Shown: one piece after another, positions 2,071 to 62,236 of the stretch
How the letters are laid out: each line of letters begins with the position of its first letter
Numbering within the stretch: the stretch's first letter is position 1
Sequence record: OR234014.1
Strand: one strand, 5' to 3'
Length of the DNA stretch: 64,000 nucleotides
Source of the DNA: Staphylococcus phage SAC
The notes under the pieces: generated by a model
The model's database searches: none
Seen by the model: the letters and a program-made list of their open reading frames with translations, nothing else
Told to the model about the DNA's origin: nothing
Position numbers and translations under genes: made by a program

Positions 2071-2415
2071 TTACATCATTTCTATAGCTTCTGATTTAAT
2101 TTGTTCATAGTCTTTAATGTGTTTATTAAACTCTTCAACACGCATATGTTCCAATATATAATCTGCTAACTCAAACACTTTATTATCAACTAGTCTTATT
2201 GTTGTATCGTCTGTAAAGTCTAGGTTAGACGGTATATATTCTAATGGTGTTATGTCTTTATTCTCTTTTAATTGGTTTACAATATGAATGTATTTGCATA
2301 GTAAATCGTGTTCAACAACATCTACCTCTATTGTTTCATAGATAGCTGTTAATAATAAGTCAAATTCAATTCCTTCAAGTTCTGCTGTTTGTTCCATTTG
2401 GTTAAGTAATTTCAT
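2071..2415 (-). CDS. hypothetical early protein (paralogue of 2758..3108)
   Basis: 114 aa. Shares the pattern L..AI.E...V.E.D.L.KY.H...QL...PSN.D...HM..E.F with 2758..3108. Own promoter upstream. Confidence 0.6.
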   Translation of the reverse strand: MKLLNQMEQTAELEGIEFDLLLTAIYETIEVDVVEHDLLCKYIHIVNQLKENKDITPLEYIPSNLDFTDDTTIRLVDNKVFELADYILEHMRVEEFNKHIKDYEQIKSEAIEMM

Positions 2416-2458
2416 AGTTTATCAATCCCTTTTCTTTTATTTGTATTTCCTTAATTAC

Positions 2459-2486
2459 ATTATATCAAATATACAGTTAATTGCAA
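2459..2486 (-). promoter_or_regulatory. promoter TTGCAA-16-TATAAT
   Basis: Minus-strand TTGCAA (2481-2486) and TATAAT (2459-2464), upstream of the 2415 start. Confidence 0.5.
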
Positions 2487-2519
2487 TAGTTTTAGTTAAT
2501 TATTTTGGGAAGTTTTACA

Positions 2520-2780
2520 CTAATGATTATTCAGTAATTCTTTTATTACGTCTGGTGCTAGTGTTGTTATGTCATAGTCTTGTCTTAACTCATCTAAACT
2601 ATTGTACTGTTTAATCGTTCCGCTGTCTTTGTCACTGCCTTTAATTGTTTGTTTGCTTACTGTTTCGTTAATAGCTTCATCAATATCAGTGAAGCTATTA
2701 ACGTTGTCCATTATATCTATAAGTTCTTTATCAGATAAGTTCATGTGTAATGTCTCCTTAGAATAGCATTTGTTCTGCAT
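2520..2780 (-). CDS. hypothetical early protein
   Basis: 86-aa ORF co-oriented in the early gene array. Confidence 0.5.
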   Translation of the reverse strand: MQNKCYSKETLHMNLSDKELIDIMDNVNSFTDIDEAINETVSKQTIKGSDKDSGTIKQYNSLDELRQDYDITTLAPDVIKELLNNH

Positions 2781-3108
2781 TAAATTCTAGTGTTTCAATA
2801 TCCATAATCATTTGTTCAAATTGTTCTTTGTTCATGTGGTTTAAGATAACGTTAGTAAAGTGTTCTGCTTTGTCTTGTGCTAATATAGCTCCCTCGTAAG
2901 TGCTATAATCAATGTTAGATGGTTTACGTTCTGCTTGTGTTAATGCTTCCTTGTTTAATAACTGTTGTTCTAAGTGGTTGTATTTATCTAATGCATCATA
3001 TTCAACAAGCTCTGTCATAACCGCTTCCTCAATTGCTAAAACTAATAATCTTTCAAGTTTAGTGTTTCCGTTTGCCATTTCTTTTACTGTGTTTTTCATT
3101 ATAATCAA
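2758..3108 (-). CDS. hypothetical early protein (paralogue of 2071..2415)
   Basis: 116 aa. Conserved early promoter immediately upstream. Confidence 0.6.
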   Translation of the reverse strand: MIIMKNTVKEMANGNTKLERLLVLAIEEAVMTELVEYDALDKYNHLEQQLLNKEALTQAERKPSNIDYSTYEGAILAQDKAEHFTNVILNHMNKEQFEQMIMDIETLEFNAEQMLF

Positions 3109-3149
3109 TTCCTTTTCTGTTTGTTTTTTATTTGTTGTGTTCCTTACAT

Positions 3150-3184
3150 CTATTATATTACACTATCTTAGGTGTAGTGTCAAC
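3150..3184 (-). promoter_or_regulatory. early promoter unit (TTGACA-17-TGTAATATAAT plus upstream A/T tract)
   Basis: Minus-strand 'aaaaagtgTTGACActacacctaagatagTGTAATATAATag'. Near-identical copies at 3608, 4544, 5010 and 5399. Confidence 0.7.
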
Positions 3185-3190
3185 ACTTTT

Positions 3191-3292
3191 TTAAAACTTT
3201 TTTAAGTTTTTTTTAGTGTTCTCTATAGTTACAATAGCATCCGTCTTTTGTGTTGAACGGTATTTCTTACCTTTGTATTTAAACTTAATCAT
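3191..3292 (-). CDS. small ORF (33 aa), truncated member of the 'MIK(F/V)KYKGKKYRSTQ' family
   Basis: MIKFKYKGKKYRSTQKTDAIVTIENTKKNLKKF. RBS AAGGGG. The 48-aa paralogue is at 4157..4303. The ORF runs into the downstream promoter's A/T tract. Confidence 0.3.
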   Translation of the reverse strand: MIKFKYKGKKYRSTQKTDAIVTIENTKKNLKKF

Positions 3293-3307
3293 GTTAATAA
3301 TCCCCTT

Positions 3308-3583
3308 TTATTTTGTTTGTACATTGCAATATAGTTTATATTCCAAGTAATCTTCTTTTTTGATGTATTCATTGAAATCCCCTATAACATTTGTTAGGTT
3401 TATCCATGAGTTTGTTGCCTTACTAAAACCTCTTAGTGTTATTAATCCAGTAGGCAATTTGAATTGTTCTCTTTTTAATCCTAATTCTTTTCCTATGCTG
3501 TCTTTGATGTATTTAACATCTTTTTTAATTTCTGTTATTGTTGTTTTTGGTTTAGTTTCTATTTTAATATTCATGTGTATCAA
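3308..3583 (-). CDS. hypothetical early protein
   Basis: 91-aa ORF with the conserved early promoter upstream. Confidence 0.55.
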   Translation of the reverse strand: MIHMNIKIETKPKTTITEIKKDVKYIKDSIGKELGLKREQFKLPTGLITLRGFSKATNSWINLTNVIGDFNEYIKKEDYLEYKLYCNVQTK

Positions 3584-3607
3584 TCCTTTTCTGTTTGTTT
3601 ACTACAT

Positions 3608-3641
3608 CTATTATATTACACTATCTTAATGATAGTGTCAA
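3608..3641 (-). promoter_or_regulatory. early promoter unit
   Basis: Minus-strand 'gtgTTGACActatcattaagatagTGTAATATAATagatgtagtaaacaaacagaaaagg'. Confidence 0.7.
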
Positions 3642-3700
3642 CACTTTTTTAAAACTTTTTTAAGTTTTTTTATTTGTTTGCTGTTCTTTGTTGTGTTCCT

Positions 3701-3991
3701 TTATAGTCTTCCTGCATTAATAAATAACTCTAACTGTTTGTTTAACTCATCCATAATAAAGCTATCAAGTTCATGAGCAGTAATATTATATTTCTTGTTT
3801 CCTGATGTCATTGAAACTACATTGTACACGTTATCGAATTTGTTAAAGTAAATACCATATTGTAACAAACCCCAATCATTAACATAAATATCAGTAACAT
3901 CTAAGTTATTATGTTTGCTTGAAGCTTCGTTCTGTGTTCTAATAACTGTATAATCTTGGTTTAATTCTTCTAAAGTTTTATAGTTTTTCAT
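3701..3991 (-). CDS. hypothetical early protein
   Basis: 96-aa ORF. RBS AGAGGGA. Confidence 0.55.
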   Translation of the reverse strand: MKNYKTLEELNQDYTVIRTQNEASSKHNNLDVTDIYVNDWGLLQYGIYFNKFDNVYNVVSMTSGNKKYNITAHELDSFIMDELNKQLELFINAGRL

Positions 3992-4043
3992 AAGTAATCA
4001 ATCCCTCTTCTTTTTTTGTTTGTTGTGTTCCTTACTACAATTA

Positions 4044-4075
4044 ATATATTACAGTATAAGCTCGTATTTGTAAAG
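4044..4075 (-). promoter_or_regulatory. early promoter variant (TTTACA-17-TGTAATATATT)
   Basis: Minus-strand 'TTTACAaatacgagcttatactgTAATATAtt'. Confidence 0.5.
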
Positions 4076-4142
4076 TATTATATCAAAGAAATAAGGGAAG
4101 TTTTACACTAATGTGAAGCGGTTATATAGGCATAAAAAAATA

Positions 4143-4165
4143 AGGGTGGTTAGCCCTTATCTAAT
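4143..4165 (-). terminator. rho-independent terminator
   Basis: Stem ataaggg / cccttat with loop tggttag. Followed by a T7 run on the minus strand (plus-strand A-run at 4134-4140). Confidence 0.6.
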
Positions 4166-4303
4166 AAATATATTAATATTCTCTTGTAATCTAATAAACC
4201 AGTCTATCAATGTGATTACTGCTGTACCACCTAGAATAGTTACAATAGCATCTGTATTTTGTGTTGAGCGGTATTTCTTGCCTTTATATTTAACTTTAAT
4301 CAT
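4157..4303 (-). CDS. small protein (48 aa), 'MIKVKYKGKKYRSTQ' family, C-terminal hydrophobic segment
   Basis: MIKVKYKGKKYRSTQNTDAIVTILGGTAVITLIDWFIRLQENINIFIR. RBS AAGGGA. Its stop lies inside the terminator stem. Confidence 0.45.
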   Translation of the reverse strand: MIKVKYKGKKYRSTQNTDAIVTILGGTAVITLIDWFIRLQENINIFIR

Positions 4304-4355
4304 TGTGTATCAATCCCTTATTTTTATTTTTTAAGCCTATGTAATAGGCTTTTGG

Positions 4356-4502
4356 CTATGACCAATTTATATCTTGTCTTTCTTTCTCTAGTTTTACCAG
4401 TTGTCTACGTAAAAAACGTGCTAACTCTCTGCTATTCCTACCATATATTAAGGCTTGCTGTACCTCGTCAATTTCTCTTAAAACTATTCTTATATCTCTC
4501 AT
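4356..4502 (-). CDS. small basic helical protein (48 aa)
   Basis: MRDIRIVLREIDEVQQALIYGRNSRELARFLRRQLVKLEKERQDINWS. Sits directly downstream of an early promoter. Confidence 0.4.
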   Translation of the reverse strand: MRDIRIVLREIDEVQQALIYGRNSRELARFLRRQLVKLEKERQDINWS

Positions 4503-4543
4503 TTTAATACCCGCCTTTTTTGATTTGTTTTTGTATTACATCT

Positions 4544-4575
4544 ATTATATTACAGTATCTTAAATGTAATGTCAA
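4544..4575 (-). promoter_or_regulatory. early promoter unit
   Basis: Minus-strand 'TTGACAttacatttaagatactgTAATATAATagatgtaatac'. Confidence 0.7.
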
Positions 4576-4583
4576 ACATTATT

Positions 4584-4817
4584 TTAACCTTTTTTAACAA
4601 GTTTTGTTTTTCCATTTTCAAGTGTTAGTTTCACGCATTTGTCTGTTGTTGTAATTTCTTTTACATTGCTATTGTAAAGAGCATGACAAGCTTTATTAAT
4701 ATGATAGTATAAATCATCACATTCTTCCATATCTGACCACAGTCTATAATCATTTGATATAGAACCTTGTGCTTTAATTCTGTTATAAGTTCCTTTAATG
4801 TAATATAAATATTTCAT
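4584..4817 (-). CDS. hypothetical early protein
   Basis: 77 aa. RBS GGAGG lies in the 3' end of the upstream small ORF. Confidence 0.55.
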   Translation of the reverse strand: MKYLYYIKGTYNRIKAQGSISNDYRLWSDMEECDDLYYHINKACHALYNSNVKEITTTDKCVKLTLENGKTKLVKKG

Positions 4818-4818
4818 A

Positions 4819-4974
4819 TTATTTAACCTCCGTATAGTGTATTACAAGGCTATAACCTTGCTTTGTTGGTTCGTGGTATGCTCGTGTGATAATTACGTTG
4901 TTTTCTCTCTCGAATTGTTCCATTTCATAGCCGTAGTTCTTATATGGTTTACTGTTAGTAATTAGTGTTTTCAT
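4819..4974 (-). CDS. small ORF (51 aa)
   Basis: MKTLITNSKPYKNYGYEMEQFERENNVIITRAYHEPTKQGYSLVIHYTEVK. Stop TAA is 1 nt before the next ATG. Confidence 0.4.
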   Translation of the reverse strand: MKTLITNSKPYKNYGYEMEQFERENNVIITRAYHEPTKQGYSLVIHYTEVK

Positions 4975-5009
4975 AATTAATCAATTCCTTTTCTGTTTGT
5001 TTACTACAT

Positions 5010-5044
5010 CTATTATATTACACTATCTTAATGATAGTGTCAAC
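5010..5044 (-). promoter_or_regulatory. early promoter unit
   Basis: Near-identical to the 3608-3641 copy. Confidence 0.7.
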
Positions 5045-34124: not shown

Positions 34125-34464
34125 AAGGATGTGCTCCCTCAAATACAATCTTAATCCTGTGTACATCATTTGATACATAGATATCTGAGTAATGTATTGT
34201 TTTAGGTACTTTGACTTCAGAACCATTATAACGTACTAAAGAGTAACCTCCTGCCCATCTTGACTCTACATGCTCAATATACATAACTGTAGAATCAGTG
34301 TAAGGAAATCCCGACTCTTCTACAATGATAGGCTCCTTATTATCTCTAGCTTTTTTAAAACGTTCTGCTATTTCAATATAAGGTAAGGGCAATACATCAT
34401 TTGTATTAGCCCTACCTAATGCTTCTTTAACACTATTAATATTTCTATCTATTAGATTATTCAT
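34111..34464 (-). CDS. hypothetical protein
   Basis: 117-aa ORF. Confidence 0.5.
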   Translation of the reverse strand: MNNLIDRNINSVKEALGRANTNDVLPLPYIEIAERFKKARDNKEPIIVEESGFPYTDSTVMYIEHVESRWAGGYSLVRYNGSEVKVPKTIHYSDIYVSNDVHRIKIVFEGAHPYEES

Positions 34465-35479
34465 TTACATCTTCCTTAGTCTCTTTATTAGTAGAGCTAA
34501 GCTCTTCGTAGTAATCTTGTAATGCTTTAAACTCTTCTAATTGAGTAGTGTCTACTTTTGTATTGTTTAAAGGTGCATACTTATGAGGGAAATTCTCGTG
34601 GTAAACTCTACTAAATAATTCTAAGTATAATTCATGGTTGTCCATTAATGTCGGTACCCAATCTTTATCATATTTTTTAATTTCTTCACCATTTAACGTA
34701 ACATAATTACGCCATGTTCCTTTAGTAATTAAACCACGCTCAACGGCTTCTTTATAGATAGTATGATAAGGGTCAACACCGTTTAATTGAATAGTATCTT
34801 CATCAGAACCTACTTCATAACCTGATAATAAATCAACTTCCGCTTTTTGACCAGGTCTAGATAGCTTAGACTTCTTAGTCTCAATACGCATAACATGACC
34901 TTTATACGTAGGTTTACCTGTCATAGCATCATTCTGTTTTAATTCTGATTCTTTACCTTTAGATACTTTAATACGTAAACTAGCACCATGTTCAAAAGCT
35001 CTTCCTCCTGTAGACTTAATAGGGTCATCATAAGGATTACTCATATTTAAATTATCACGTGCTTGGTTAATAACAATTAATCCTGTATTTGTATCATTAA
35101 GCTTAGGTGAAATAGCATTTACTACTTTTTGTGTACTTGTCGCTTTCGTTCCAAGTTTTTTATGGTCTACTCCTGCATCAATTTCATCTTGTGTACGTGT
35201 AGCTCCTAGGGAATCCCAAATGAACAAAATAGGTACGCCTGGTGCTTTCTCATTAAATGTATCAATCCAGTATTCTAACTCTTTACCTACGGTTTCTACT
35301 GATAGTTCAGTAACATTTTTAAGTCTACCTTCACCTGACTGTATTGAGAACAATTTAGATACGTCTACACCTAACTGTTCCATACGTTGGTTATCCGCTG
35401 TTCCTTCAATGTCAATCCAAACTGTAATAACTCCTAATTGTGTTGCTACTCTAGATAAGTGTACTGCAAAAGTCGATTT
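34457..35479 (-). CDS. RecA/UvsX-like recombinase, exon 2
   Basis: Frame opens at 35479 with 'KSTFAVHLSRVATQLGVITVWIDIEGTADNQRMEQLGVDV...', which matches RecA '[31 protein letters not shown]'. Confidence 0.8.
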   Translation of the reverse strand, partial: KSTFAVHLSRVATQLGVITVWIDIEGTADNQRMEQLGVDVSKLFSIQSGEGRLKNVTELSVETVGKELEYWIDTFNEKAPGVPILFIWDSLGATRTQDEIDAGVDHKKLGTKATSTQKVVNAISPKLNDTNTGLIVINQARDNLNMSNPYDDPIKSTGGRAFEHGASLRIKVSKGKESELKQNDAMTGKPTYKGHVMRIETKKSKLSRPGQKAEVDLLSGYEVGSDEDTIQLNGVDPYHTIYKEAVERGLITKGTWRNYVTLNGEEIKKYDKDWVPTLMDNHELYLELFSRVYHENFPHKYAPLNNTKVDTTQLEEFKALQDYYEELSSTNKETKEDVNE

Positions 35480-36839
35480 CAGTTACTACCCCTAGTTTCC
35501 TAGTACTTTAACACTAACTTAATAGTGGGCTTAGACTATATCTTTAATTGCCTGGTATGCAAGTTTTTGTTTTCGGTCTATATGAATATTATTATCTCGA
35601 TATAATGTTTTCATTAATTTTTTAGCTTTTTTACCTGTATAACCTATTCTATAAGAGGTAGAAGTTTTAGATATTGTAGGACATTTAAAACCTAATAAGT
35701 CTTCAATCCAACTACCTACTTCTTTTAAAAATTCAGGATGATTGTTAACTAAAGTTATTGACCATCTATTATTATAACATCCAATAGAACCATCACCATC
35801 AAACAATCCTCTTAAGTAATGTTTCCTTAAATCATAAGGTATGTCTTGTGTTAACCAATCTGTTTTTTTAGTTTTCATAGGTATTATACCATATTTAGCT
35901 AAATCATTACATAGTTTTTCATCGGTAACACTAAAAGTATACGTAGAATTTTCATTTTTTATATAATCTCTTTTTCTATGAGATTCATAAATTTTACTGT
36001 CTGAATTCAATTCTTTTTGAACTCTTTCTACTATTTCTTTATCAATTAACTCTAGTGTTAAGTAACATTGACCTTCTCTTCTATATCTAACACAACCGTC
36101 AGCCATCAATAAACCTAAAATATATGCTTTCTCTTCAGTATCAATTACTTCAAAGAAATCTTTATTAATATTTCTATTAACTCTCCTAGGTTGATAGTAA
36201 GATGTATCAATACCAAAGTCTCTTAATATTTTACTTATCTCTCTTGCATGTGTTGTATAGACTGCTTTTATCTCTGCAATAGTCATAGACTCCTCAGTGT
36301 ACATTCTTAAAATATCTTGTTTTTGTTTACTAGTCCATCTTCTCTTGCTATTTGTGTCAATATTAAACTCATCTAGTACTTTTTTAATTGTAAAGTAATG
36401 TGCATTATACTTTTTTTGTATTTCACTAAATTTCTTACCTTCTTGAAAGGATTTCACTATATCTTGTTTTTCTTCATTAGACCATACTCGTTTTACCATA
36501 TTATACTACTCTCCATTTTAAATAGATTTCGTAGGCAATTCCCACGTACTTCGGTTTCCCTACTCTACTCAGTTACTCACTAATACTTCTCAATATTAGC
36601 TACCTTTTCGATAGTCGTTGAACCTTCTCCATTTTACAGGAGCTTGGATGCTGATTACCTACACTATATAATATAACAGTTTAATAACTCGTTATACCAT
36701 ATAACTCATATACTTGTTATTTTTAACATTCACGCTTACCGTTTCCAGTTACGTTGTAGTTAACAAGTCTTTAAGGCTTCCCAGCAATTCACGTGGATTT
36801 GTAATAACTCATTATAAGCCATTGTGGCTATTTAAGGTA
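35480..36839 (-). mobile_element. group I intron in the recA-like gene (1360 nt) carrying a LAGLIDADG homing endonuclease gene
   Basis: Splits Walker A: exon 1 ends ...YGLTGSG(GGT) and exon 2 starts KSTF. The upstream exon ends in U and the intron ends in G. GC-richer structured flanks. Core motif 'aagatatagtct' about 55 nt from the 3' end. Confidence 0.8.
35531..36499 (-). CDS. LAGLIDADG homing endonuclease (double-motif), intron-encoded
   Basis: Two motifs: 'YILGLLMADGCV' and 'LRGLFDGDGSI'. Confidence 0.8.
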   Translation of the reverse strand: MVKRVWSNEEKQDIVKSFQEGKKFSEIQKKYNAHYFTIKKVLDEFNIDTNSKRRWTSKQKQDILRMYTEESMTIAEIKAVYTTHAREISKILRDFGIDTSYYQPRRVNRNINKDFFEVIDTEEKAYILGLLMADGCVRYRREGQCYLTLELIDKEIVERVQKELNSDSKIYESHRKRDYIKNENSTYTFSVTDEKLCNDLAKYGIIPMKTKKTDWLTQDIPYDLRKHYLRGLFDGDGSIGCYNNRWSITLVNNHPEFLKEVGSWIEDLLGFKCPTISKTSTSYRIGYTGKKAKKLMKTLYRDNNIHIDRKQKLAYQAIKDIV

Positions 36840-38867: not shown

Positions 38868-39557
38868 CTATATAACTTTGAAACTGTCAATATTATTTTT
38901 AATATATTCCGTTTTTTGTTTGTACTGCTCTTCAGTTAGTTTATCTGATTCATAGTAGTCTTTGATTTGTTGTAAGGCTAATTTATACTTAATATATCCT
39001 TTATACGAATTAAATTGCTTTATTAACTCTTCGTTGTATTCTACCATATCATTATATGTTAATCCTATCTCTATATCTGCATCTATAGGATACTGTCTTA
39101 ACTCACCATTAATTTTTATTTTTAAGAAATCATAAGGAAGGTTCTCCATTACATGGACAATAACTTTAGCCATAATATTAACTTCTTCAGGAGGTGAGTC
39201 TACTACAATACTATCATGAACAGTAGCTACTAACTTCGATTTCATATTCTTATTTTGAATAAAGTCGTCAATATAAGTAATAGCCATGTTAGTAAGGTAA
39301 CCACCTGTACCTTGAATAATCGTGTTAAAGGACTGTCTAAGACCCTCATTTTTAATCTTTTTATCTCTAGATTGTGCTGAGTGTATATATCTTCTGTGTC
39401 CATTCATTGTTTCTACATATCCATGTTTTTGAACAAACTCATGAGTTTCATCTATAGACTTCTTAATAGCAGGTTTATTAGAATAAAACTTATTAAATAT
39501 TTCAGTAGCTTCATCAACTGTCATATTATTTTTACCTGCAAACGAAAACTCTGACTC
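38868..39557 (-). CDS. DNA polymerase (family A), exon 2
   Basis: Frame opens at 39557 with 'ESEFSFAGKNNMTVDEATEIF', parallel to Pol I 'MSAFGLARQLNIPRKEAQKY'. Motif C is 'LVATVHDSIVVD'. Confidence 0.8.
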   Translation of the reverse strand, partial: ESEFSFAGKNNMTVDEATEIFNKFYSNKPAIKKSIDETHEFVQKHGYVETMNGHRRYIHSAQSRDKKIKNEGLRQSFNTIIQGTGGYLTNMAITYIDDFIQNKNMKSKLVATVHDSIVVDSPPEEVNIMAKVIVHVMENLPYDFLKIKINGELRQYPIDADIEIGLTYNDMVEYNEELIKQFNSYKGYIKYKLALQQIKDYYESDKLTEEQYKQKTEYIKNNIDSFKVI

Positions 39558-40637
39558 CGTTTATACCCTCGGTTTCCCGATATTTATTAGGGGACTAGAC
39601 TATATCTTAAGTAAATACGTTACTATCTACTTCTAGGCTATTCCATGTAGGTATGAGCTACATGTACTCTACTCGGTTATATTGCAATAAGCCCTCTCGG
39701 CGTAAAGCTCACCTTTTGATAGTCGTTCGATAAAATAATTTAAGTGTTTAAGTGTAATCAAATCGTTCTCTTTTCTCTATTTTGAATGTAATCCCATAAC
39801 AATCTTCACCGGTTTCCATTTTTCTAAAGTTAGTGCCTGACGTAGGTATATTTAGTCTCTTTAGTAGCTTAGTTTTTACTCTATCATAATCAATTTCCAC
39901 ATGATTCTTATAAGCAACATAGTGAGGTGCATAAAGTTTAGAAGGGTTTTCTACAGGTTGATAATTATATTCTTGTAGTGTTTTAAAAACCCAGTTCTTA
40001 TGATGTTTTCTTTCCCCTCTAAGAACTGCAGAAATATGGCTTTGAATTAAGTTATGTTCCTTAGCAAATTTAGACTGATTGAAGAATATATATTCTTTAC
40101 CTGTAGGGTCTATACCTAATATCTTTTTACTTCTTGAAGGTACAAATCCTAAGTTCTCTTCTCTAGTAGCCCATTTACATTTATCTAAGCTATATACTTT
40201 ATTACCTAGTTCTTTAATATCCTTATCTAACACTAACTCACCATTTTTATACTTCTCTAAACTCCAACCATCAATTAACTCTACATCCTTAAGAAAGTTA
40301 TTAAAATTATGCCATCTATCGTCTACTGTTATTCCTAGTAATCCATAATATTTATATTCCTTACATTTAGGATTATAACATCTGTCTATCATATGAGACC
40401 ATACATGAGCTAATTTAGAATATAGCTTATTGTGATTATATCTTTCTCCTATTTTAAATTCTATTTAAATCATCCTTACTTATTAAATTACACTTAAATT
40501 ATTCTACACAGGATTAGCATTTTAAAGCCTTCCCTGTTAGCATAGTTCTTAACTACCATTTCCTGTAGCTCCTAACGTGAACTATACACCCTATACTCAA
40601 TAGGTTTACCTAGTTTTACTACGGCTATATTTTGTTA
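39558..40637 (-). mobile_element. group I intron in the DNA polymerase gene (about 1080 nt) carrying an HNH-type endonuclease gene
   Basis: Inserted inside polymerase motif B (RQASKAVAFGLIYG | ESEFSFA). Exon 1 ends in U (TAC GGT) and the intron ends in G. Core motif 'aagatatagtct' about 50 nt from the 3' end. Confidence 0.75.
39748..40392 (-). CDS. intron-encoded homing endonuclease (HNH_3-like with C-terminal NUMOD/IENR-type HTH)
   Basis: 'LDKCKWATREENLGF' resembles the HNH_3 'NLRWVTRSEN' motif. 'FFNQSKFAKEHNLIQSHISAVLRGERKHHKNWVF' is typical of the C-terminal DNA-binding module of phage HNH/GIY endonucleases. Confidence 0.5.
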   Translation of the reverse strand: MIDRCYNPKCKEYKYYGLLGITVDDRWHNFNNFLKDVELIDGWSLEKYKNGELVLDKDIKELGNKVYSLDKCKWATREENLGFVPSRSKKILGIDPTGKEYIFFNQSKFAKEHNLIQSHISAVLRGERKHHKNWVFKTLQEYNYQPVENPSKLYAPHYVAYKNHVEIDYDRVKTKLLKRLNIPTSGTNFRKMETGEDCYGITFKIEKRERFDYT

Positions 40638-43160
40638 ACCGTAAATTAAACCAAAGGCTACAGCTTTACTGGCTTGTCTTTCTTCTGCTGTTACGTCCTT
40701 CATACTTTTACCATACATAATACTTGCCGTATTTTTATGAATATCTTGTCCTGTTAAAAACATCTCTAACATTTCTTTATCATCTGTATATAGTGCCGTA
40801 ATACGCATCTCTAAGGCACTATAGTCGGCTTGTAAAATTACACCATCTTTAAATCTAGAGATAAAAGAACGTTTAATAGGGTGGTGATAATCAAACTTAT
40901 TTATATCAGATGTATGAGCAGGTAATTGTTGCATATTAATGTTTGAACTACTTAATCGACCTGATGCAGTTCCTGTACTATTATAGTTACCATGTAAATT
41001 ATGTGTATTCTTATTTACTCTTTTAGGTAATTTCTTAGTAAAAGAATTTCTTTTAGTTTGCAAAGAGGCATAATAAATAAGTAAGTCTAGTAGCTTTTTA
41101 TTATCTTCATTCTCAACCAAAGATAATGCCATCTTTATAGACTTAGTATCTGTTTTGTAGTCTTTCCATGATAACTCATCTTCTTTAGTACTATTACTGA
41201 AAGGTTTATCCTTAACTGTCTCTTTACTATAAGGTAACTGTATACCTAAAATGCTATATAATACTTCACCTTTATGGTCTCCTGAGCTTGGTTTGAACTT
41301 CCAACCTTCATCTTTAAATTTAGCTCTATACTCATGTATTTCTTTGTCTCTATCAGATGGTTTCTTCTCATGTTCTGCTAGGGCTAGTTGGTATAAATTA
41401 TACCTAGTTTCTTCAAATTCTTGGATAGCCCAATGCTCTCTAATTTCTTGGTGGGTTTTTTCCATCTCATTAATATAAAATTCATCATTTTTATGCATGT
41501 ATTCTAAGTCACAATGTAAACCATTTGATTGTATTCTAGCTAATGTTCTAATTAATCTAGGGTAACTTATTGACATTAAGTTCAATGCTTTAGGTCTATT
41601 TTGTTCTTTTAACTTTTCAATAACATCACAGTATATTCTTCTACAGACATCGGTGTCACCACTGGCATAAGGATGCATAAGCTCTAATGGAATCCAATCA
41701 TAATTAAAGTCACCTCCATCTACCTCATTAATAACTTTAGTATTGTCCTTATACGTGTTAATTAAATTAATAGATGTACCTAATACATAATCTTTAGCTT
41801 TGTTAGATAAACTCATATACTCGGGTGATGATTCGGCTACTTCTTTAAATTCAGAATCCATAAGCATATTCTTTGTAATAACCTCAGGTGTTAGTTTTAA
41901 CTCTAAGTATCTTTTTTGCTCTTCTGTGATACCATAATACTTATCTTCATCTGTTAGTTCTATATCAATGTTATCGAGTTTATTTTTCAACCAAGTATCA
42001 TACTCATTTGATTTTATGTTATATTCTTTCTTAGCAACTTTTTTATTTTCTTTTTTAATCTCTTTTAGTTTATCTGATAAGAATCTTAGTAGCTTCAATA
42101 CATACCACTCTTTAAAATCTTCAAGAGGTTTGTCATATCCTCCTACATCTGTTACTTCGTAAGCAAGGTCTGATAATCTTAGAGACTCTGCTTGTTCTTG
42201 TGTTACAGCTAAATACCAACCTACCTTAGTGTCTTGATTATTTTCAAAGTCTGTGAAACCTTGTGTTGTCATTAGAAAATTTATATCATAAGTAGCATTA
42301 TGTAGTACCTTAATGTCTTCTTTGCTAGCTACCCATTCTTTTAATAAGGAAAGAATTTCATCAATATCTTGTTGTCCATTCTCCCAAGTAAAGTCTGATT
42401 TATATAAAGGTATTGTAACACCTTGACCATTTTCCCAACTCATTGATAATACTAAGGGTTTACTTCCTTCTCTATCAGGACTAAGTGAGTTAGTTTCTAA
42501 ATCCCATGCGGTAATGTCTACACCGTCATGATTATCATTCTTTACTTCTTTATTAAATATTTCTCTTACACGCTCAATACTTGTAACAAGTTCATACTTA
42601 ACTTCTTTAGGTTTAAATACGTCTTCACCTTGTTCTACAAACTTACCTAATAACTTAAGGTCAGCTACTACATGACGCTCACTATTCTTATTAACGTTTG
42701 TGTACTCTATGCTATAAGTAGGTAATACCCAAACATCATGTTTTTTATCTTCACTAGTAATAGTTACTTTATTAGGTACACCTCTAACTTTACCGATAGC
42801 TGATACATTTAATAAATATTTAACCCCTAGCTTACCTAAAGGAATAATAATATCGTACTTATTGTTTATGATTATTTGACTCATTCTTTCATAGTAAGGT
42901 TTAACTTCAGATAACTTAACGTCTTGGTACTTAATTGTTTTACCATAGTTATTCTTAATAGGTGTAGGTACTTTAGGATATAAAAAATCAATGTCATAAT
43001 CCTTTGTGCTCCTATCTCTATTAATACCAGAAATATTAGACAATAGTTGTTTTAGTACTCTACCATTAGGTGTATTTAATAGTACATTCTTAACACTACC
43101 ATCATTACTAACTGAAAAGTGTTCCTCTCTGATATAGTCGTATAAAATTAAAACTTTCAT
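40638..43160 (-). CDS. DNA polymerase (family A) with 3'-5' exonuclease domain, exon 1
   Basis: Exo I 'ITAWDLETNSL' and Exo III 'YASGDTDVCRRIY'. Pol motif A 'ILQADYSALEMRI' and motif B 'RQASKAVAFGLIYG'. Confidence 0.85.
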
Positions 43161-45000: not shown

Positions 45001-45936
45001 TTAGGCTTCACAATTAATACAAATTTTAGATAAATTGAATTGTTGTGATGCATTTGTACCATGTTGATAATACAATGACTTAATACCATTAGACCATGCA
45101 AAGAGATAAAGTTCATTTAACTCCTCTGCTGTAACATGTTTAGGGTTAATCATAATGTTTATAGATTGTCCTTGGTCAATATATTTTTGTCTTGTAGAAG
45201 CTTGGTCTAATATATTATATTGATTAATTTCACCATATGTTTTAAATACTTCCTTTTCATAATCACTTAAGAAAGTTAGGTGTTGAACGGAACCATCATT
45301 GTCCCTAATACTCTCAATAACTTTTTTATTGTCCTTTCCTTTTTCTTTTAATAGTCTTTTAAGGTAAGGATTAATCATAGTTTTCTTTACTTTAGCAGTG
45401 TCTACAACGTAATAATTACTCATAAAAGGTTCAATTGATTTAGAAACTTGACCTAGGATAAATGAGCTCGAAGTCGTAGGAGCTACCGCCATCAAACACG
45501 AATTCCTTCTACCATACCCTTTAAGAATAGTAGGCTCTCCATAAAGTTTAGCTAACTGCTCACTAGCTTTATAAGTTTTTTCTTTTAATAATTTAAATAT
45601 CTCTTCATTAATTTGACTAGCTTTAATACTTTCAAAAGGTATGAGTTTTGATTGTAGGTATGAATGATATCCAAGAACGCCTATTCCTAAGGCTCTGTTC
45701 TCAACAGAAAAGTTATAAGCTCTCTCCATAAATTTAAATGCTTCTTGTTTATCTTTTTCAGCTGAGTCTCTTAGATATTCTAAGTCTCTAATAAACTCAG
45801 ACATAACAGCATCTAAAAAGTAAACAAGTGTCTCTACAGCATCCGTGTGTTTCCATTCATCATACTTAACAAGGTTCATACTAGATAGGTCACATACAAA
45901 TGACCAATCTTCTTTATTAGGTAACATAATTTCACT
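45001..45936 (-). CDS. nrdE: ribonucleotide reductase large subunit NrdE-like, exon 2
   Basis: Frame opens with 'SEIMLPNKEDWSFVCDLSSMNL', which is NrdE 'SEILQVN...CNLGSLNL'. C-terminal Cys pair 'KICINCEA'. Confidence 0.8.
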   Translation of the reverse strand, partial: SEIMLPNKEDWSFVCDLSSMNLVKYDEWKHTDAVETLVYFLDAVMSEFIRDLEYLRDSAEKDKQEAFKFMERAYNFSVENRALGIGVLGYHSYLQSKLIPFESIKASQINEEIFKLLKEKTYKASEQLAKLYGEPTILKGYGRRNSCLMAVAPTTSSSFILGQVSKSIEPFMSNYYVVDTAKVKKTMINPYLKRLLKEKGKDNKKVIESIRDNDGSVQHLTFLSDYEKEVFKTYGEINQYNILDQASTRQKYIDQGQSINIMINPKHVTAEELNELYLFAWSNGIKSLYYQHGTNASQQFNLSKICINCEA

Positions 45937-46775
45937 CCTACATGTTCAATAGTGGTCGTTAATCACTACCAGTTCTCTAATTAACAATATTTATAGTTAG
46001 GGAATTTTTCAGAATTACATCTTCTGGTTAATGTATTTCTGTTTATTCCTAGCTCTTCAGAGCATATACCCATATTTTTATAAACTACGCCATCAACAAT
46101 AACTTTTTTAGCATTAGCGCTTTCTTTACCATACATCGGATTGTTTTTTCCTCGTCTATCCATTATATTCCACCCAAAACCTATCTCCATATTATAACCT
46201 TTTTTTACAGATTCGTACATGTCTATAAAAATTTGCTCTACCATGTAAGCAAACTTTTTATCCTCTGTACTAAAAGTGTATAATTCTTCTACATAAAAAT
46301 TCTCTTCACCATGTTTCATCATTGATTGGTGTAAATTAGTTGTTGAGCCTATCTTAGCTTTTCTAATATGATTTTTAAATCTATGTTGAACTGTTTTTGA
46401 TGTAATTCCGATGTATATTTTATTATTGTTTTTGTTTGTAATTTTATAAATATGGTACTCCATTTTCGACCCTCTTAATTATTATTGTTAATATGAACTT
46501 CTATATGTTTCCATATAGAGCAGACTATATCATCTTCCTTAATAAGGAAGTCCACCATTTCGATTTAAATAAGATTTACTTGATTATTACTCAATACTTA
46601 TACCACTTGGCTCTAACCTTATCCCTTCACTTATGTGAATAGGTTACGGATAGTCGTTAGGCATTTACAGATTTATAATCTGATTTAGCACGGTGTTGTC
46701 GTATATTTTAACTTAGATATTCACCGTTTAGATGGATTTTTCGATAGTAATTACTTACTAAAGGTGCAAATTTTT
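45937..46775 (-). mobile_element. group I intron in nrdE (839 nt) carrying a GIY-YIG homing endonuclease gene
   Basis: Splits the active-site 'SNLC|SEI'. Exon 1 ends TGT (U) and the intron ends ...GTAGG (G). The 'gatatagtct' core (46531-46545, minus) is 5' of the ORF. Confidence 0.8.
45981..46463 (-). CDS. GIY-YIG homing endonuclease, intron-encoded
   Basis: 'HIYKITNKNNNKIYIGITSKTVQHRFKNH' is the GIY-(10)-YIG motif with the conserved R. Confidence 0.8.
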   Translation of the reverse strand: MEYHIYKITNKNNNKIYIGITSKTVQHRFKNHIRKAKIGSTTNLHQSMMKHGEENFYVEELYTFSTEDKKFAYMVEQIFIDMYESVKKGYNMEIGFGWNIMDRRGKNNPMYGKESANAKKVIVDGVVYKNMGICSEELGINRNTLTRRCNSEKFPNYKYC

Positions 46776-47522
46776 ACACAAATTTGAGTTATTAATAGTC
46801 AATCCTTTGTCTTTATATACATCTACTGTATTACTATTTGCATTATCATGAAAGAAGATATAGGGGTATCCTATTTGTGTTCTTCTTGTTAATACTTTAG
46901 CCCATGTTTTTCTTTTTTCTTTGTCCCCATTAATCATGTCTAATAACCAATCATCAGTAACTGTTACCGCATGTGTTAAGTTTTGAATTGGATTACCTTC
47001 GGTACCAATCTCTAAAAACTCGTCAATATCTTTGTGTTCTATAGGTAGATAAGGGCTAAATCTTCCTCTTCTTTGGCTACCCTGACTTATCGTATCTGTC
47101 ATTTGCTCAAATAGCTTCATAAAATGAACGGAACCACTTGTCAGTCCATTATCAGTGATTTCTGAGCCTCTAGGTCTGATGTTACCGAAGTAACCACTTG
47201 TACCACCACCGTATTTACTCATCATACCTACTTCACTAGCAGTATTAAGTATCGATGGTATAGTATCATCTACCCAACTACCAAAACAACTAATACTAAA
47301 TCCTCTATCTTTCCCGAAATTAGACCATATAGGACTGGATAAGGAATAATAACCTTTACTCATATAATCATAAAACTTGTCAGAAAACCCATCAATACCT
47401 AAAATATCTTCAGCGTAATCTGCAATATCTTTAATTCTTTGTTCTGGTGTTTCACCATCACTTAAATAACCACGTTCTAGAAAAACTCTAGAATCATTAT
47501 TTAACCATTCAAAATTACTCAT
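46776..47522 (-). CDS. nrdE: ribonucleotide reductase large subunit NrdE-like, exon 1 (N-terminally short)
   Basis: 'SCFGSWVDDT' loop, 'GGGTSGYFGNIRPRGSEI', 'GYPYIFFHDNAN', and ends 'SNLC'. It starts about 95-140 aa later than typical NrdE. Confidence 0.8.
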
Positions 47523-47537
47523 CTATATACACTGCCT

Positions 47538-48875
47538 TTATATCATTTTTAGTCTTAAAATAGCGTTTACTTTATCTTTAGTAACTCGTTTACCAGTATT
47601 TTCAAAATCAGATTCCGTTGAAAAAATAGTATCTTCCGTTACAGAATTACTAAATTTTGTATAGTTTACAGAACGTTTAGATAAAAAGTCCGTTAACTTA
47701 GTACTAATAACTTCATCATCAAACCATGACACTTCACTTAGTAACTCTTCATCAACATCAAAAAGTTTAGTATACCCAACAGCTACTAGAGAGTTATTAA
47801 GCCTATTTTTAATAAATTCTTGTACTACTTTCTTAGGTAAGAACTCTAGTTCCCCATCTTCATACATCCAATCAAGTAACCGTGTTTCTGATTCATAAGA
47901 TTTTTTACAGGCTGTGTAAACTGCATCTTCCATTTCTTTGTTGAACCACTCAGGTCTTTCTTCTCTAAGAATATTAATGATTTCTGTTCCAAATAATCCA
48001 TGGATTTGCTCTTCTTTAGATGTAGCTTCAATAGCATTTGATAAACCTCTAAATAAGTTTTTATATTTATTAAAACTCATCATAATTAAAAATTGACTAA
48101 ATAAAGATACATGTTCAATAAATATAGAAAATAATAAAACAGATAGTACGTAATCTCTATCATCCTCACTCTTACTTAGTTTTACATGCATCGCTAACTC
48201 ATCAACACGTTCTTTAAGAGCAGGAATATCGTCAATTGTTTTAAACTCCTCATTCAAACCTAAAATCTCTAATAAATGTGAATAAGCGTCGGCATGACGT
48301 GCTTCACTCTCACTAAAAGTTGCACCCACAGCTCCAGTTTCCCATTTAGGCATTCTATGATATAGGTCACCCCAGAAAGTCTTTACTGCTACTTCTACTT
48401 GGGCAATTGCTAGCATAGCTTTTTTAATGGTCATTTGCTCATTGTATTTAACGTTATTCTTATAGTCTTGAATATCTGATGTATAGTTAAACTCAGTGTG
48501 TACCCAGTAACTTTGGCGTATAGCATCTTTATATTCTAATAATTCAGGGTATTCATAGGGTTTTAATTCTTTTCTTGGTTTGAATAAGTCTCTTTTACGC
48601 TCTCTTTTCTTTTTATCCCTATATAAAATAAAAGCTTTAGCAGTATCTTTATACATACTACTAAATAAAACTTCTTCTACTATATCTTGTATTAATTCTA
48701 CAGTAATGATAGTGTCTTGTTCTTCTAGTAAAGAGTCTACGTCATCTACAAGAGAATCAATAACATCTTCAATATATTCTTCTGTTTCTGAGTTGGCTCT
48801 TAAAATAGCATTAGTAACTTTACTTAAATCATAATCTACAACGGAACCATCACGTTTTTTTATTTGTGTAATCAA
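47538..48875 (-). CDS. nrdF: ribonucleotide reductase small subunit (R2/NrdF-like) with N-terminal ATP-cone domain
   Basis: N-terminal 'ITQIKKRDGSVVDYDLSKVTNAILRA...VELIQDIVEEVL...AKAFILYR' is ATP-cone consensus (VIKRDG..E.F...KI..AI; EEIQD.VE; A.AYI.YR). R2 core 'SESEARHADAY' (ExxH + Y radical), 'EEQIHGLFG', and C-terminal 'DFLSKRSVNYTK...ESDF'. Confidence 0.8.
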   Translation of the reverse strand: MITQIKKRDGSVVDYDLSKVTNAILRANSETEEYIEDVIDSLVDDVDSLLEEQDTIITVELIQDIVEEVLFSSMYKDTAKAFILYRDKKKRERKRDLFKPRKELKPYEYPELLEYKDAIRQSYWVHTEFNYTSDIQDYKNNVKYNEQMTIKKAMLAIAQVEVAVKTFWGDLYHRMPKWETGAVGATFSESEARHADAYSHLLEILGLNEEFKTIDDIPALKERVDELAMHVKLSKSEDDRDYVLSVLLFSIFIEHVSLFSQFLIMMSFNKYKNLFRGLSNAIEATSKEEQIHGLFGTEIINILREERPEWFNKEMEDAVYTACKKSYESETRLLDWMYEDGELEFLPKKVVQEFIKNRLNNSLVAVGYTKLFDVDEELLSEVSWFDDEVISTKLTDFLSKRSVNYTKFSNSVTEDTIFSTESDFENTGKRVTKDKVNAILRLKMI

Positions 48876-60240: not shown

Positions 60241-61551
60241 CTACTTTCCTAATTCTTTAATTTCAAATTTTTCTTCTTCATATATTTTTCTACGCTCATT
60301 AGAATGTTTATATAAAAACTTATGTGTCATATCATTAAAATCAAATATCTGTGTTGTATTATCTTCTTTCTTTTTACGTAACGCACGACCTACACGTTGT
60401 AGTGTTTGTCGTAAAGATTTACCACCTGCACCTAGGATTAATGAACGAATACCACTGATATCAACACCCTCATCAATAAGGCTTGTAGCAATCATAACTT
60501 TAAGTTTACCATTACGCATTTCATCTAACTTTTGTTTACGCATATCCGACTCTATTTCACCATGTAAAAAGAAATTCTCTACACCCATTTCATTCAACAT
60601 AGTGGATAGTATTTCACCATGCTCAACAAAATTAATAATAATAAGCGTAGCTTTATCTTGATTATACCACTTAGCTGTTAGTTTTGCAATAAGTTTATTT
60701 CTAAACTCGTTATGTACAATACCTTTATTATATGCATCCCTGTAATCCTTAATATTATCTATATCATCAGGGTTAGCAATAGGGATAATATTTATTGTAG
60801 GTCTAGCTGAATAGCCATTCTCGATTAAAAACTCATTAGATGTTCTTACAATAATATCTCCGAATAATGCTTGCATACGCATCCATAGTAGCTCATCTTT
60901 CATGTCTATGGAGCCTGTTAGTGCTATCCTGTATAGTGCATTCTCACAGGACATTAAACTTGTATACCATGAATCTGATTTACTGTGATGTGCTTCATCA
61001 ACTATCATTACAGCTATAGAGTCTAGGAACTCACGCATTTTATGATATTTATCATAGCTCTTTTGATTTTTCTTTCTTACTTCTTTTTGGAAAATAACAT
61101 TATGATTGTTTAATGCCATTAATACTTCAGCATCCGTCTTTGAATTATGATAAATATCTTGAAGTATATCAAGCACATTCTGCTCTACTTTAGTTTTAGG
61201 TGTTGTACTTTCTAATAATAACTTAAGTAACCTTTTTTGATTTTTACCACCTTCAAATTTAGGAAGTATCTCTTTAGCTATCTTTTTACTTAAGTTTACT
61301 TTAGCAGATACTTTTACTCCTTCTGTAGGGTCTTTTAAGTTAGAGTTAACAGTAGGAATCATAACTACAGTTACTTGTTTAACATCAAACTTACCAGAAC
61401 CTACTTTACCTACTGATATATTCAATCGTTCACTTAAACGGTCAGCAGATTGATTAAAAATCTCAGTAGAACTTGTAAAAAAAGCTACACGCTCTCCTTT
61501 TTCTAGTTGTGGTAATAGTTGGTCTATGATACCGCTAGCAACCTCTGTTTT
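60241..61551 (-). CDS. SF2 (DEAH-box) helicase, exon 2
   Basis: 'MIVDEAHHS' (motif II) and 'LQRVGRALRKKK' (motif VI). The track's 'M' at 61554 is a TTG inside the intron 3' end. Confidence 0.8.
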   Translation of the reverse strand, partial: KTEVASGIIDQLLPQLEKGERVAFFTSSTEIFNQSADRLSERLNISVGKVGSGKFDVKQVTVVMIPTVNSNLKDPTEGVKVSAKVNLSKKIAKEILPKFEGGKNQKRLLKLLLESTTPKTKVEQNVLDILQDIYHNSKTDAEVLMALNNHNVIFQKEVRKKNQKSYDKYHKMREFLDSIAVMIVDEAHHSKSDSWYTSLMSCENALYRIALTGSIDMKDELLWMRMQALFGDIIVRTSNEFLIENGYSARPTINIIPIANPDDIDNIKDYRDAYNKGIVHNEFRNKLIAKLTAKWYNQDKATLIIINFVEHGEILSTMLNEMGVENFFLHGEIESDMRKQKLDEMRNGKLKVMIATSLIDEGVDISGIRSLILGAGGKSLRQTLQRVGRALRKKKEDNTTQIFDFNDMTHKFLYKHSNERRKIYEEEKFEIKELGK

Positions 61552-61798
61552 CAATTATGTTACGATTAGGTTCGTTACTCCTAACCTTCTTGTAGTCTCC
61601 TACAAAGTTCAGACTATATCTTAACCATATCTAATGAGACTTAGGTTCTCCCTGTTTCCAATCACTTGATTGTACATAATAGTCGTTGCACCTTCCTAGT
61701 AATTTATTAAGCTTGGCTCATGATTGTCTCAAATGAGAGAGTTCCCATGAATTAAAGGAGTTACACTTATAATATTTCTACTATAAGGGGCAAAATTT
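61552..61798 (-). mobile_element. small ORF-less group I intron (about 247 nt) in the helicase gene
   Basis: Splits Walker A 'ATNAGK|TEV'. Exon 1 ends GGT (U) and the intron ends ...TTG (G). GC-richer structured sequence with the 'aagatatagtct' core about 60 nt from the 3' end. In-frame stops in the intervening sequence. Confidence 0.7.
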
Positions 61799-62236
61799 AC
61801 CTGCATTGGTAGCTTGCTTACATATACCATTATAATTGACTAAACTATTAAACACAGCTTCATACTGATAGTCACGTAATGTAATCTTACCTACGTTATT
61901 ATCTAGTAGCTGTATTTCATCATCAATATCTTCTTCAGCTAAAAAGCTTTCAGATTTTTCATCAATAATTTCGTATTGAAAGTTATGTCTTGATTGTAAC
62001 TCACCTAGTAATGTTATCATCTTAGGTAACAACCCACTAGGGAATTTGTTCTCAGCATAATCGTAGAAATCCACATAACCATCCCACACACCTCGTTTAA
62101 AAGCTAAGCTATGTTGATAGCCCTCTTTCTTAGCTCCTAACGTTTTATGAACACGCTTAAGTATGATATCTTTAATATACCCGTCACTTTCATCAAAATC
62201 TACATATGTATATATATTCTGTTGTCTTAATTGCAT
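61799..62236 (-). CDS. SF2 helicase, exon 1
   Basis: 'LRDYQYEAV' (Q-motif/Ia-like) and Walker A start 'ATNAG'. Confidence 0.75.

Follow-up and report, generated by a model that had tools for sequence, protein, structure and literature searches.

The window analysed here is a stretch of 64,000 nucleotides (nt) from Staphylococcus phage SAC (sequence record OR234014.1). On its minus strand lies a gene for the alpha subunit of ribonucleotide reductase (RNR), which is interrupted by an 839-nt insert containing an open reading frame (ORF) of its own. An earlier note, which did not give the strand, had described the insert as a group I intron with a GIY-YIG endonuclease at the catalytic cysteine codon of nrdE, and had placed it at 45937-46775; these coordinates and the length of 839 nt are exact to the base. 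The locus is made up as follows.

47522..46776, minus strand: exon 1 of the RNR alpha gene, 249 codons (translation; Pfam Ribonuc_red_lgN and Ribonuc_red_lgC)
46775..45937, minus strand: intron insert, 839 nt, from the 5' splice site to the terminal G at 45937
46492..46775, minus strand: ribozyme core, intron nt 1-284 (Rfam alignment, pair table, covariation, minimum free energy fold)
45979..46491, minus strand: endonuclease cassette, 513 nt, intron nt 285-797, in the P9.1 loop (alignment of the window, VL10 and SAP_01 introns)
45981..46463, minus strand: predicted GIY-YIG homing endonuclease gene, 160 amino acids (aa) (PF01541, PF20987 and TIGR01453; alignment to 1mk0 and 1ln0)
45937..45978, minus strand: intron 3' element, nt 798-839, with the P9.1 3' strand (801-804), P9.2 (807-812/822-827) and the terminal G (covariation in P9.1 and P9.2)
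45936..45001, minus strand: exon 2 of the RNR alpha gene, 311 codons and stop (translation; Pfam Ribonuc_red_lgC)

The exon ends 'SNLC' and 'SEI' of the earlier note can be read directly from the reverse-complemented sequence. Exon 1 finishes with ACT ATT AAT AAC TCA AAT TTG TGT (reverse complement of 46776..46799), encoding T-I-N-N-S-N-L-C; the last codon is the Cys codon TGT at 46778..46776. Exon 2 opens with AGT GAA ATT ATG (S-E-I-M), the first codon being the Ser codon AGT at 45936..45934. The insert starts AAAAATTTGCACC and ends CATGTAGG, and the two junction signals that had been claimed, an exon U and an intron-terminal G, are found at 46776 and 45937, respectively. The exon 1 frame reads five codons into the intron (KNLHL) before it meets a TAG at intron nt 16-18. 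Conceptual splicing at these boundaries gives the ligated-exon junction expected of the gene, ...AATTTGTGT|AGTGAAATT; it restores the sequence N-L-C-S-E-I, which the earlier note had made the touchstone of its proposal, and yields a protein of 560 aa. A Shine-Dalgarno-like AGGAG runs across the 3' splice site (GUAGG|AGU; 45925-45941, minus strand), 7 nt ahead of an in-frame ATG. This ATG follows the first three codons of exon 2, and the arrangement accounts for the separate coding sequence (CDS) that gene callers begin at MLPNK.

Aligned over its whole length with the PDB entries 6dqx (E 2e-215) and 6dqw (E 1.6e-176), the joined protein runs through ...SNLC|SEIMLP... without a gap. In phages PSU4 and SscM-1, the gene is uninterrupted and has exactly 560 codons; its product is colinear with the joined protein, with 82% and 80% ungapped identity, respectively. 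In human RRM1, the residue aligned with the Cys before the intron is C429, which stands in the motif S-N-L-C-T-E-I; C429 is the thiyl-radical cysteine, equivalent to C439 of E. coli NrdA. The intron is in phase 0 and sits directly behind the Cys codon. The description 'at the catalytic cysteine codon' is thus right about the identity of the cysteine and wrong only if it is taken to mean that the codon itself is split.

The name nrdE has to be given up. The alpha protein scores 141.9 bits with the class Ib NrdE model TIGR04170, far under the cut-off of 750, and 727.5 bits with the NCBIfam model TIGR02510 ('NrdE-prime'), above the cut-off of 602.25. It has 560 aa, as against ~700 aa for NrdE, and the nearest structures, 6dqx and 6dqw, are class Id alpha subunits. 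Judged by these matches, the gene encodes a class Id-like alpha subunit and not class Ib NrdE. Public records call this alpha/beta pair 'class Ia'.

The insert is a group I intron, as the earlier note had it. Searching 45800-46900 against Rfam gave a match to RF00028 at 46785..46501 on the minus strand, which covers the full model (positions 1-253) with 63.7 bits (E 1.4e-15), compared with a gathering threshold of 50 bits; the match is not due to chance. The alignment displays P1 with the splice-site U·G, P2, P3, P4, P6, P8, P9 and the P7 strands GACUA/UAGUC. Relative to the Rfam consensus there is a 92-nt insertion at the position where subgroup IA introns have P7.1 and P7.2. The intron is of subgroup IA type, an assignment that does not extend to IA1 versus IA2. 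The helices are listed below in intron numbering (window coordinate = 46776 minus intron nt).

P1: exon positions -4..-1 and nt 1-2 with nt 7-12
P2: 17-21/26-30; P3: 40-45/220-225; P4: 49-54/81-86
P6: 87-88/114-115; P6a: 94-98/104-108
P7: 121-126/248-253; P7.1: 133-141/146-159; P7.2: 175-185/193-207
P8: 226-232/236-242; P9: 258-264/269-275; P9.1 5' strand: 278-281

Five homologous introns from phages, trimmed of their ORFs, were aligned with MAFFT and compared with a structure drawn by hand. Standard pairs fill 98.5% of the cells, and 21 of the 65 pairs show changes on both sides; when the 3' partners were slid by 1-3 columns as a control, just 0-2 pairs did so. Compensatory changes are found in P1, P2, P3, P4, P7.1, P7.2, P9, P9.1 and P9.2. 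P3 and P4 contain 2-3 such pairs each; P7.1 and P7.2, which lie between P7 and the 3' strand of P3, contain two and four covarying pairs, respectively. In P1, the exon sequence ...GUGU pairs with GCAC (nt 9-12). The wobble pair U(-1)·G9 is invariant in all five introns, and the pair beside it switches between A-U and U-A; at the other end, the intron closes with ...GUAGG. An unconstrained minimum free energy fold of the ORF-less form recovered P1, P3, P4, P6, P7.1, P7.2, P8, P9 and P9.1 (z = -2.98).

The nuclease gene is located 3' of the entire catalytic core, in the loop of the peripheral hairpin P9.1; the stem of this hairpin, GUUC/GAAC, covaries in phage OPT-SC01. Its product matches PF01541 (GIY-YIG; E 3.5e-9, 37.3 bits against a cut-off of 22.6), PF20987 (I-TevI DNA-binding domain, residues 110-159; 30.3 bits against 27) and the NCBIfam model TIGR01453 ('group I intron endonuclease'; 59.9 bits against 56.05). 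The catalytic residues of I-TevI are Y6, Y17, R27, E75 and N90. When the protein is aligned with the I-TevI catalytic domain (1mk0, E 3e-4; 1ln0), the corresponding elements are HIY4-6, YIG17-19, R28, E76 and N91. Both motif tyrosines (Y6 and Y17) are kept, and the first motif reads HIY instead of GIY. A phmmer match to the structure of the I-TevI DNA-binding domain, 1i3j, is weak (E 0.27). These matches make the product of the 160-aa ORF a GIY-YIG homing endonuclease, as the earlier note had it, of I-TevI type and with the catalytic residues conserved.

A Shine-Dalgarno-like AAGAGGG precedes the ATG of the nuclease gene by 6 nt, and the stop codon falls within a 10-base-pair (bp) stem that closes the cassette, formed by AUUAACAAUA (nt 284-293) and UAUUGUUAAU (nt 787-796). 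The 326-nt intron of phage VL10 lacks exactly nt 285-797 and has the loop sequence GTTCATAAGAGAAC, which is also the loop of the phiIPLA-C1C intron, so that the ORF-less form looks like either the state before insertion or a precise reversion to it. We also looked for a footprint of nuclease invasion. The cassette flanks GTTCATA|AGAGAAC match the exon junction TTTGTGT|TCTGAAAT at ~7/16 positions by eye, which is chance-like, and the idea was dropped. The intron of Romulus (JX846613), identical to that of the window, carries an annotated promoter that maps to a position in P7.2.

46566..46594, minus strand: promoter-equivalent position, intron nt 182-210, in P7.2 (mapped from the annotation in the Romulus intron)

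This promoter might drive expression of the endonuclease. A sigma-70 scan of 45800-47700 did not recover it, returning 15 sites compared with 11.7 ± 4.0 expected.

The window comes from a Silviavirus and is ~99% identical to the Silviavirus phages Stau2, Romulus and Remus. The intron recurs with at least 99% identity in 31 public phage records, and each full-length copy listed matches it at 100%; this complete identity extends across many genomes that differ from one another by 1-2% in their exons. Four states of the site are found. It is empty in the Silviaviruses MR003 and Koomba-kaat_1; it is occupied by the intron with the nuclease gene in the window, Stau2 and Romulus; in SAP_01, HM01 and SSP49, the intron is present and its nuclease gene has lost 180 nt in frame; and VL10 has the ORF-less intron. 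The empty alleles read ...AATTTGTGT|TCTGAAATT, with zero inserted bases. The comparison with intron-less homologues that the earlier note had recommended hence defines the site exactly, at the equivalent of the junction TGT|TC. The nuclease ORF is 100% identical in at least 11 of the listed genomes, and 28 records are at least 99% identical.

The exons of the window are mosaic. Exon 1 is identical to that of CIFT_MFB_MRSA32, and exon 2 to that of Stau2. Read upstream from the insertion site, the sequence first departs from Stau2 at -25, which places the switch no more than 25 nt upstream of the site. A crossover this near the site is the trace that would be expected from homing with short co-conversion, ordinary recombination being an alternative.

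Two other positions of the alpha gene are empty in the window and occupied in relatives. At ~47077/47076 (minus strand), following ...TISQG, relatives hold a 323-aa in-frame insertion (CYDDK...LVCGN|S) that starts with Cys and ends GN|S; it is carried by Romulus, Remus, Stau2 and Koomba-kaat_1, and has no Pfam match. For a homologous insertion in another staphylococcal phage, a published domain analysis found a Hint (intein) domain and, by BLASTP, high homology to the alpha subunits of Romulus and Stau2. At ~45478/45477 (minus strand), after ...MAVAP (CCT|ACG), Romulus has an HNH-encoding intron; annotations suggest that MR003, CF5, VL10, SAP_01 and the CIFT phages have it too.

We have very little doubt that the element is a mobile self-splicing group I intron of IA type in a class Id-like RNR alpha gene, inserted in phase 0 after the codon of the thiyl-radical cysteine. 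Its boundaries, the ribozyme architecture with its covariation, the restoration of the reading frame, the nuclease motifs, the empty and occupied alleles and the mosaic exons are established. From these, and by analogy with characterised group I introns, we infer splicing in vivo, nuclease activity and the position of cleavage. The operon would be transcribed from the minus strand, and ribosomes entering the intron would stop at the TAG 16-18 nt in. The RNA would fold into P1-P9 with the P3/P7 pseudoknot, allowing an exogenous guanosine to attack after the last U of the exon, held in the U·G wobble. The freed exon 1 would then attack after the terminal G, joining the exons as N-L-C-S-E-I to give the 560-aa enzyme. 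The GIY-YIG enzyme presumably cuts intron-less alleles of co-infecting phages near the site, and repair from the intron-bearing copy would move the intron together with a short stretch of flanking exon.

Several observations weigh against this reading. A first Rfam pass at the gathering threshold over 30000-64000 (34 kb) reported only another intron, at 61589-61808, and missed the present one, which was seen only in the 1.1-kb search; a negative Rfam scan of the whole window is accordingly not evidence of absence. P7 (GACUAU/AUAGUC) is present but invariant in the five introns and so receives no support from covariation. P5, P6a and P8 were not scored, because they were misaligned (P8 by MAFFT) or differ between the introns; P8 is present in every compared sequence by inspection. 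P10 comprises 2 bp at best. Finally, the nuclease is dispensable, since truncated nuclease alleles occur in sister phages, and it might be inactive in the window too.

This last point leads to the best of the alternatives, in which the intron splices and the endonuclease is no longer active, so that the element is passed on by vertical inheritance or ordinary recombination with no homing. We consider this rather unlikely. The ORF-less intron of VL10 and the internal deletions in SAP_01, HM01 and SSP49 indicate that decay of the nuclease is under way in the lineage; the HIY motif would fit loss of activity, as would a length of 160 aa with a linker much shorter than that of I-TevI, and the promoter scan found nothing above background. 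Yet the ORF of the window is of full length, R28, E76 and N91 match I-TevI residues, and the DNA-binding domain scores over the Pfam cut-off. The conservation of the ORF among the genomes described above and the mosaic crossover within 25 nt of the site also speak for an active nuclease, as does the occurrence of the same intron in two exon 1 haplotypes, each of which is also found intron-free at the site.

It is very improbable that the gene functions in pieces, with no splicing and two separately translated polypeptides that assemble, as in the nrdA/mobE system of phage Aeh1. The AGGAG over the 3' splice site and its downstream ATG would permit separate translation of exon 2, and the GenBank records do give the two halves as separate CDSs. 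Starting at that ATG, however, drops S-E-I, including the glutamate of the N-x-C-x-E motif, which is catalytic in class I enzymes, and the N-terminal piece would bear the extra KNLHL tail. The ORF is flanked by a complete ribozyme supported by covariation, and the gene of VL10 is interrupted even though its ORF-less intron has no nuclease gene that could account for the split. Functional split RNRs are documented (PMC3653736, PMC3045599), but for the window the proposal fails on the presence of a complete ribozyme and on a second piece that would miss S-E-I with the catalytic glutamate. That the insertion inactivated the reductase gene, as a non-splicing relic or an assembly error, has nothing directly in its favour and is hardly credible, given that both exons keep long open frames with full Pfam coverage, that dozens of lytic phages, sequenced independently, have the identical intron, and that compensatory changes maintain the pairing across genera.

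Among the sister Silviaviruses, RP15 and the CIFT phages (such as CIFT_MFB_MRSA32) have no intron at this site; one codon upstream of it they have a 333-aa LAGLIDADG intein, with the junctions ...SNL|CVAPY...GILTGQ|CSEI (equivalent to position 46779/46778 of the window). In RP15 (MZ643272.1), the intein-bearing gene is at 2339-5020 of the examined stretch. The intein has an atypical C-terminal Gln, and its +1 residue is the catalytic Cys. Near-identical genes thus carry either the intron or, no more than 3 nt away, the intein.

The Ser codon after the Cys (45934-45936) differs with the state of the site. It is AGT in every examined intron-bearing allele and in the intein-bearing allele of RP15, and TCT or TCA in four examined empty alleles; among uninterrupted junctions in IMG/VR, it is TCN in 58 contigs and AGT in one. 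As both occupied states carry AGT, a rare Ser codon, and the empty ones TCN, AGT could mark alleles that were converted by, or are resistant to, one nuclease. P10 pairing was considered as a reason for AGT, with its A at +1, and was rejected, SEP9 having A, not U, at the partner position; it was also ruled out by an ORF-less relative from an uncultivated virus, in which exon 2 starts with G (SNLC|VEI). We would propose, as a tentative and rather doubtful extension, that the Cys codon is a contested landing site for two unrelated selfish elements, that AGT marks converted or resistant alleles, that intron and intein are mutually exclusive, and that the 513-nt cassette invaded an existing ribozyme independently of the nuclease found in the P6 loop of the Sepunavirus and SEP9 introns. 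Of all the results, only the finding that intron and intein alternate at the catalytic Cys codon might repay further study.

The upstream gene of the operon encodes the small subunit.

47538..48875, minus strand: RNR small subunit, an ATP-cone–NrdB fusion with the ATP-cone at the N-terminus (Pfam)

The Pfam matches are ATP-cone at residues 4-91 (E 8.3e-19) and Ribonuc_red_sm at residues 102-375 (E 4.9e-53). The protein scores 55.5 bits with the NrdF model, below the cut-off of 355, and NrdI/NrdF partners were not found among the immediate neighbours. On the other side of the alpha gene, one ORF has no Pfam matches and one is thioredoxin-like; neither is a flavodoxin. An ATP-cone on the beta subunit and a short alpha subunit of 560 aa thus occur together in a staphylococcal phage of therapeutic type.

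The element is already annotated and published for this phage genus. For annotation, it matters that gene callers split an essential reductase into two 'genes', labelled class Ia; correctly modelled, the locus encodes a single class Id-like alpha subunit of 560 aa, obtained by splicing, and a nuclease carried by the intron. The targeting of conserved RNR codons by selfish elements has been established since about the late 1990s to early 2000s. The present intron is a further case of such elements at the most conserved codons of an essential enzyme, here at the thiyl-radical cysteine. Silviavirus offers a natural series at one site (empty, intron with nuclease, truncated nuclease, ORF-less, intein one codon away), which could serve to quantify homing, co-conversion and the competition of elements with one another in phages under development for therapy. 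Mixed infections by phage cocktails would let such elements spread.

Other genes of the window are interrupted as well. A second, ORF-less group I intron at 61589-61808 (minus strand; RF00028, 91 bits, E 2.7e-22), between the ORFs 61781-62236 and 60241-61554, splits a UvsW/helicase-like gene, whose N-terminal piece matches UvsW_N and whose C-terminal piece matches Helicase_C/ResIII. The DNA polymerase A gene at 38868-43160 (minus strand) is split into 40635-43160 and 38868-39524 by an insert of ~1.1 kb (~40634-39525) that contains an I-HmuI-like (NUMOD) nuclease ORF at 39748-40392. RF00028 reaches only 17.7 bits in this insert (E 0.1, at 39576-39751). Motifs of P7 type, CGACTA and GATATAGTC, can nevertheless be seen, and the insert is probably a group I intron with a core too divergent or too interrupted for the model. 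A further interrupted gene of DNA metabolism (34457-36499, minus strand) consists of a LAGLIDADG nuclease ORF (35531-36499) followed by a RecA-like C-terminal fragment (34457-35383).

Among known systems, the closest are Romulus, Remus and Stau2 (JX846613, JX846612 and KP881332), which have the same 839-nt intron at 100% identity, at the same site and with the same 160-aa nuclease. In their GenBank records, the RNR alpha CDS is split, and the entry between the two parts reads 'homing endonuclease (with GIY-YIG motif)'; a 2020 paper describes the Romulus/Remus reductase gene as split and/or containing group I introns with homing nuclease genes (PMC7497331). The window differs from all three in its exon 1 haplotype and in lacking the 323-aa exon 1 insertion (intein), and from Romulus also in lacking the HNH intron of exon 2.

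Homologous introns are found at the same codon boundary, S-N-L-C|T-E-I, in SEP9 (Sextaecvirus), phiIPLA-C1C and OPT-SC01 (Sepunavirus-like). Their ribozymes are ~86-88% identical over the shared core, and they encode GIY-YIG nucleases of the same domain layout. However, their host gene is a class Ib-type nrdE of ~700 aa, their nuclease gene lies in the P6 loop and not in that of P9.1, and the nucleases of SEP9 and phiIPLA-C1C are only ~30% identical to that of the window. The different loop and the low protein identity argue for separate insertions of nucleases into a shared ribozyme. Homologous ribozymes at SNLC|TEI occur in several IMG/VR contigs, too. The contig IMGVR_UViG_3300037502_002518, from an uncultivated virus, contains at ~3306-3582 a 277-nt ORF-less relative, which interrupts the reductase gene at QSNLC|VEIFQ and has a much shorter P7.1/P7.2 region. 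A pattern scan of IMG/VR for the 5' junction of the family gave 15 loci, about half of them chance matches and none from Silviavirus.

The closest relatives of the nuclease outside Silviavirus are in marine phages, with 48-50% aa identity and ~70% nt identity over the catalytic domain. That of Vibrio phage 1.161.O (3447-3935 of the examined stretch) lies between toprim-like and P-loop NTPase genes (primase/helicase-like), and that of Alteromonas phage AD45-P2 (3450-3917 of the examined stretch) splits thyX. A nuclease lineage specific to reductase genes was rejected, because these nearest relatives are in other genes; they suggest wide horizontal movement of the lineage between unrelated target genes. 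With the relatives of the nuclease in unrelated genes and those of the ribozyme in nrdE, the two parts have separate histories, which fits published models of nuclease invasion and collaborative homing (PMC3984707).

The introns I1 and I2 in nrdE of phage Twort (Landthaler et al. 2002, NAR 30:1935) share 75% identity with the 5' core of the window intron. Their host enzyme is class Ib NrdE, and the intron nuclease I-TwoI is an HNH nicking enzyme. The td intron of phage T4 with I-TevI is the archetype: it too is of subgroup IA, interrupts a gene of nucleotide metabolism and encodes a two-domain GIY-YIG nuclease. I-TevI has 245 aa, its linker contains a zinc finger, and its ORF occupies another loop of the intron; the nuclease of the window has 160 aa and no zinc-finger match. 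In Bacillus anthracis/cereus, nrdE (I-BanI) and nrdF (I-BthII) contain group IA introns whose GIY-YIG nucleases cut a few nt upstream, and full, nuclease-deleted and empty alleles coexist in close strains, with co-conversion of the flanking exon (Nord & Sjöberg; PMC2248736, PMC2504315). These introns resemble the present one by description and differ from it in being located in chromosomal class Ib genes and at other insertion sites (IVS2-5). In Aeromonas phage Aeh1, lastly, nrdA is split by the homing nuclease gene mobE (PMC3653736, PMC3045599). There is no ribozyme in Aeh1, and the halves assemble as proteins; the window, in contrast, has a complete ribozyme.

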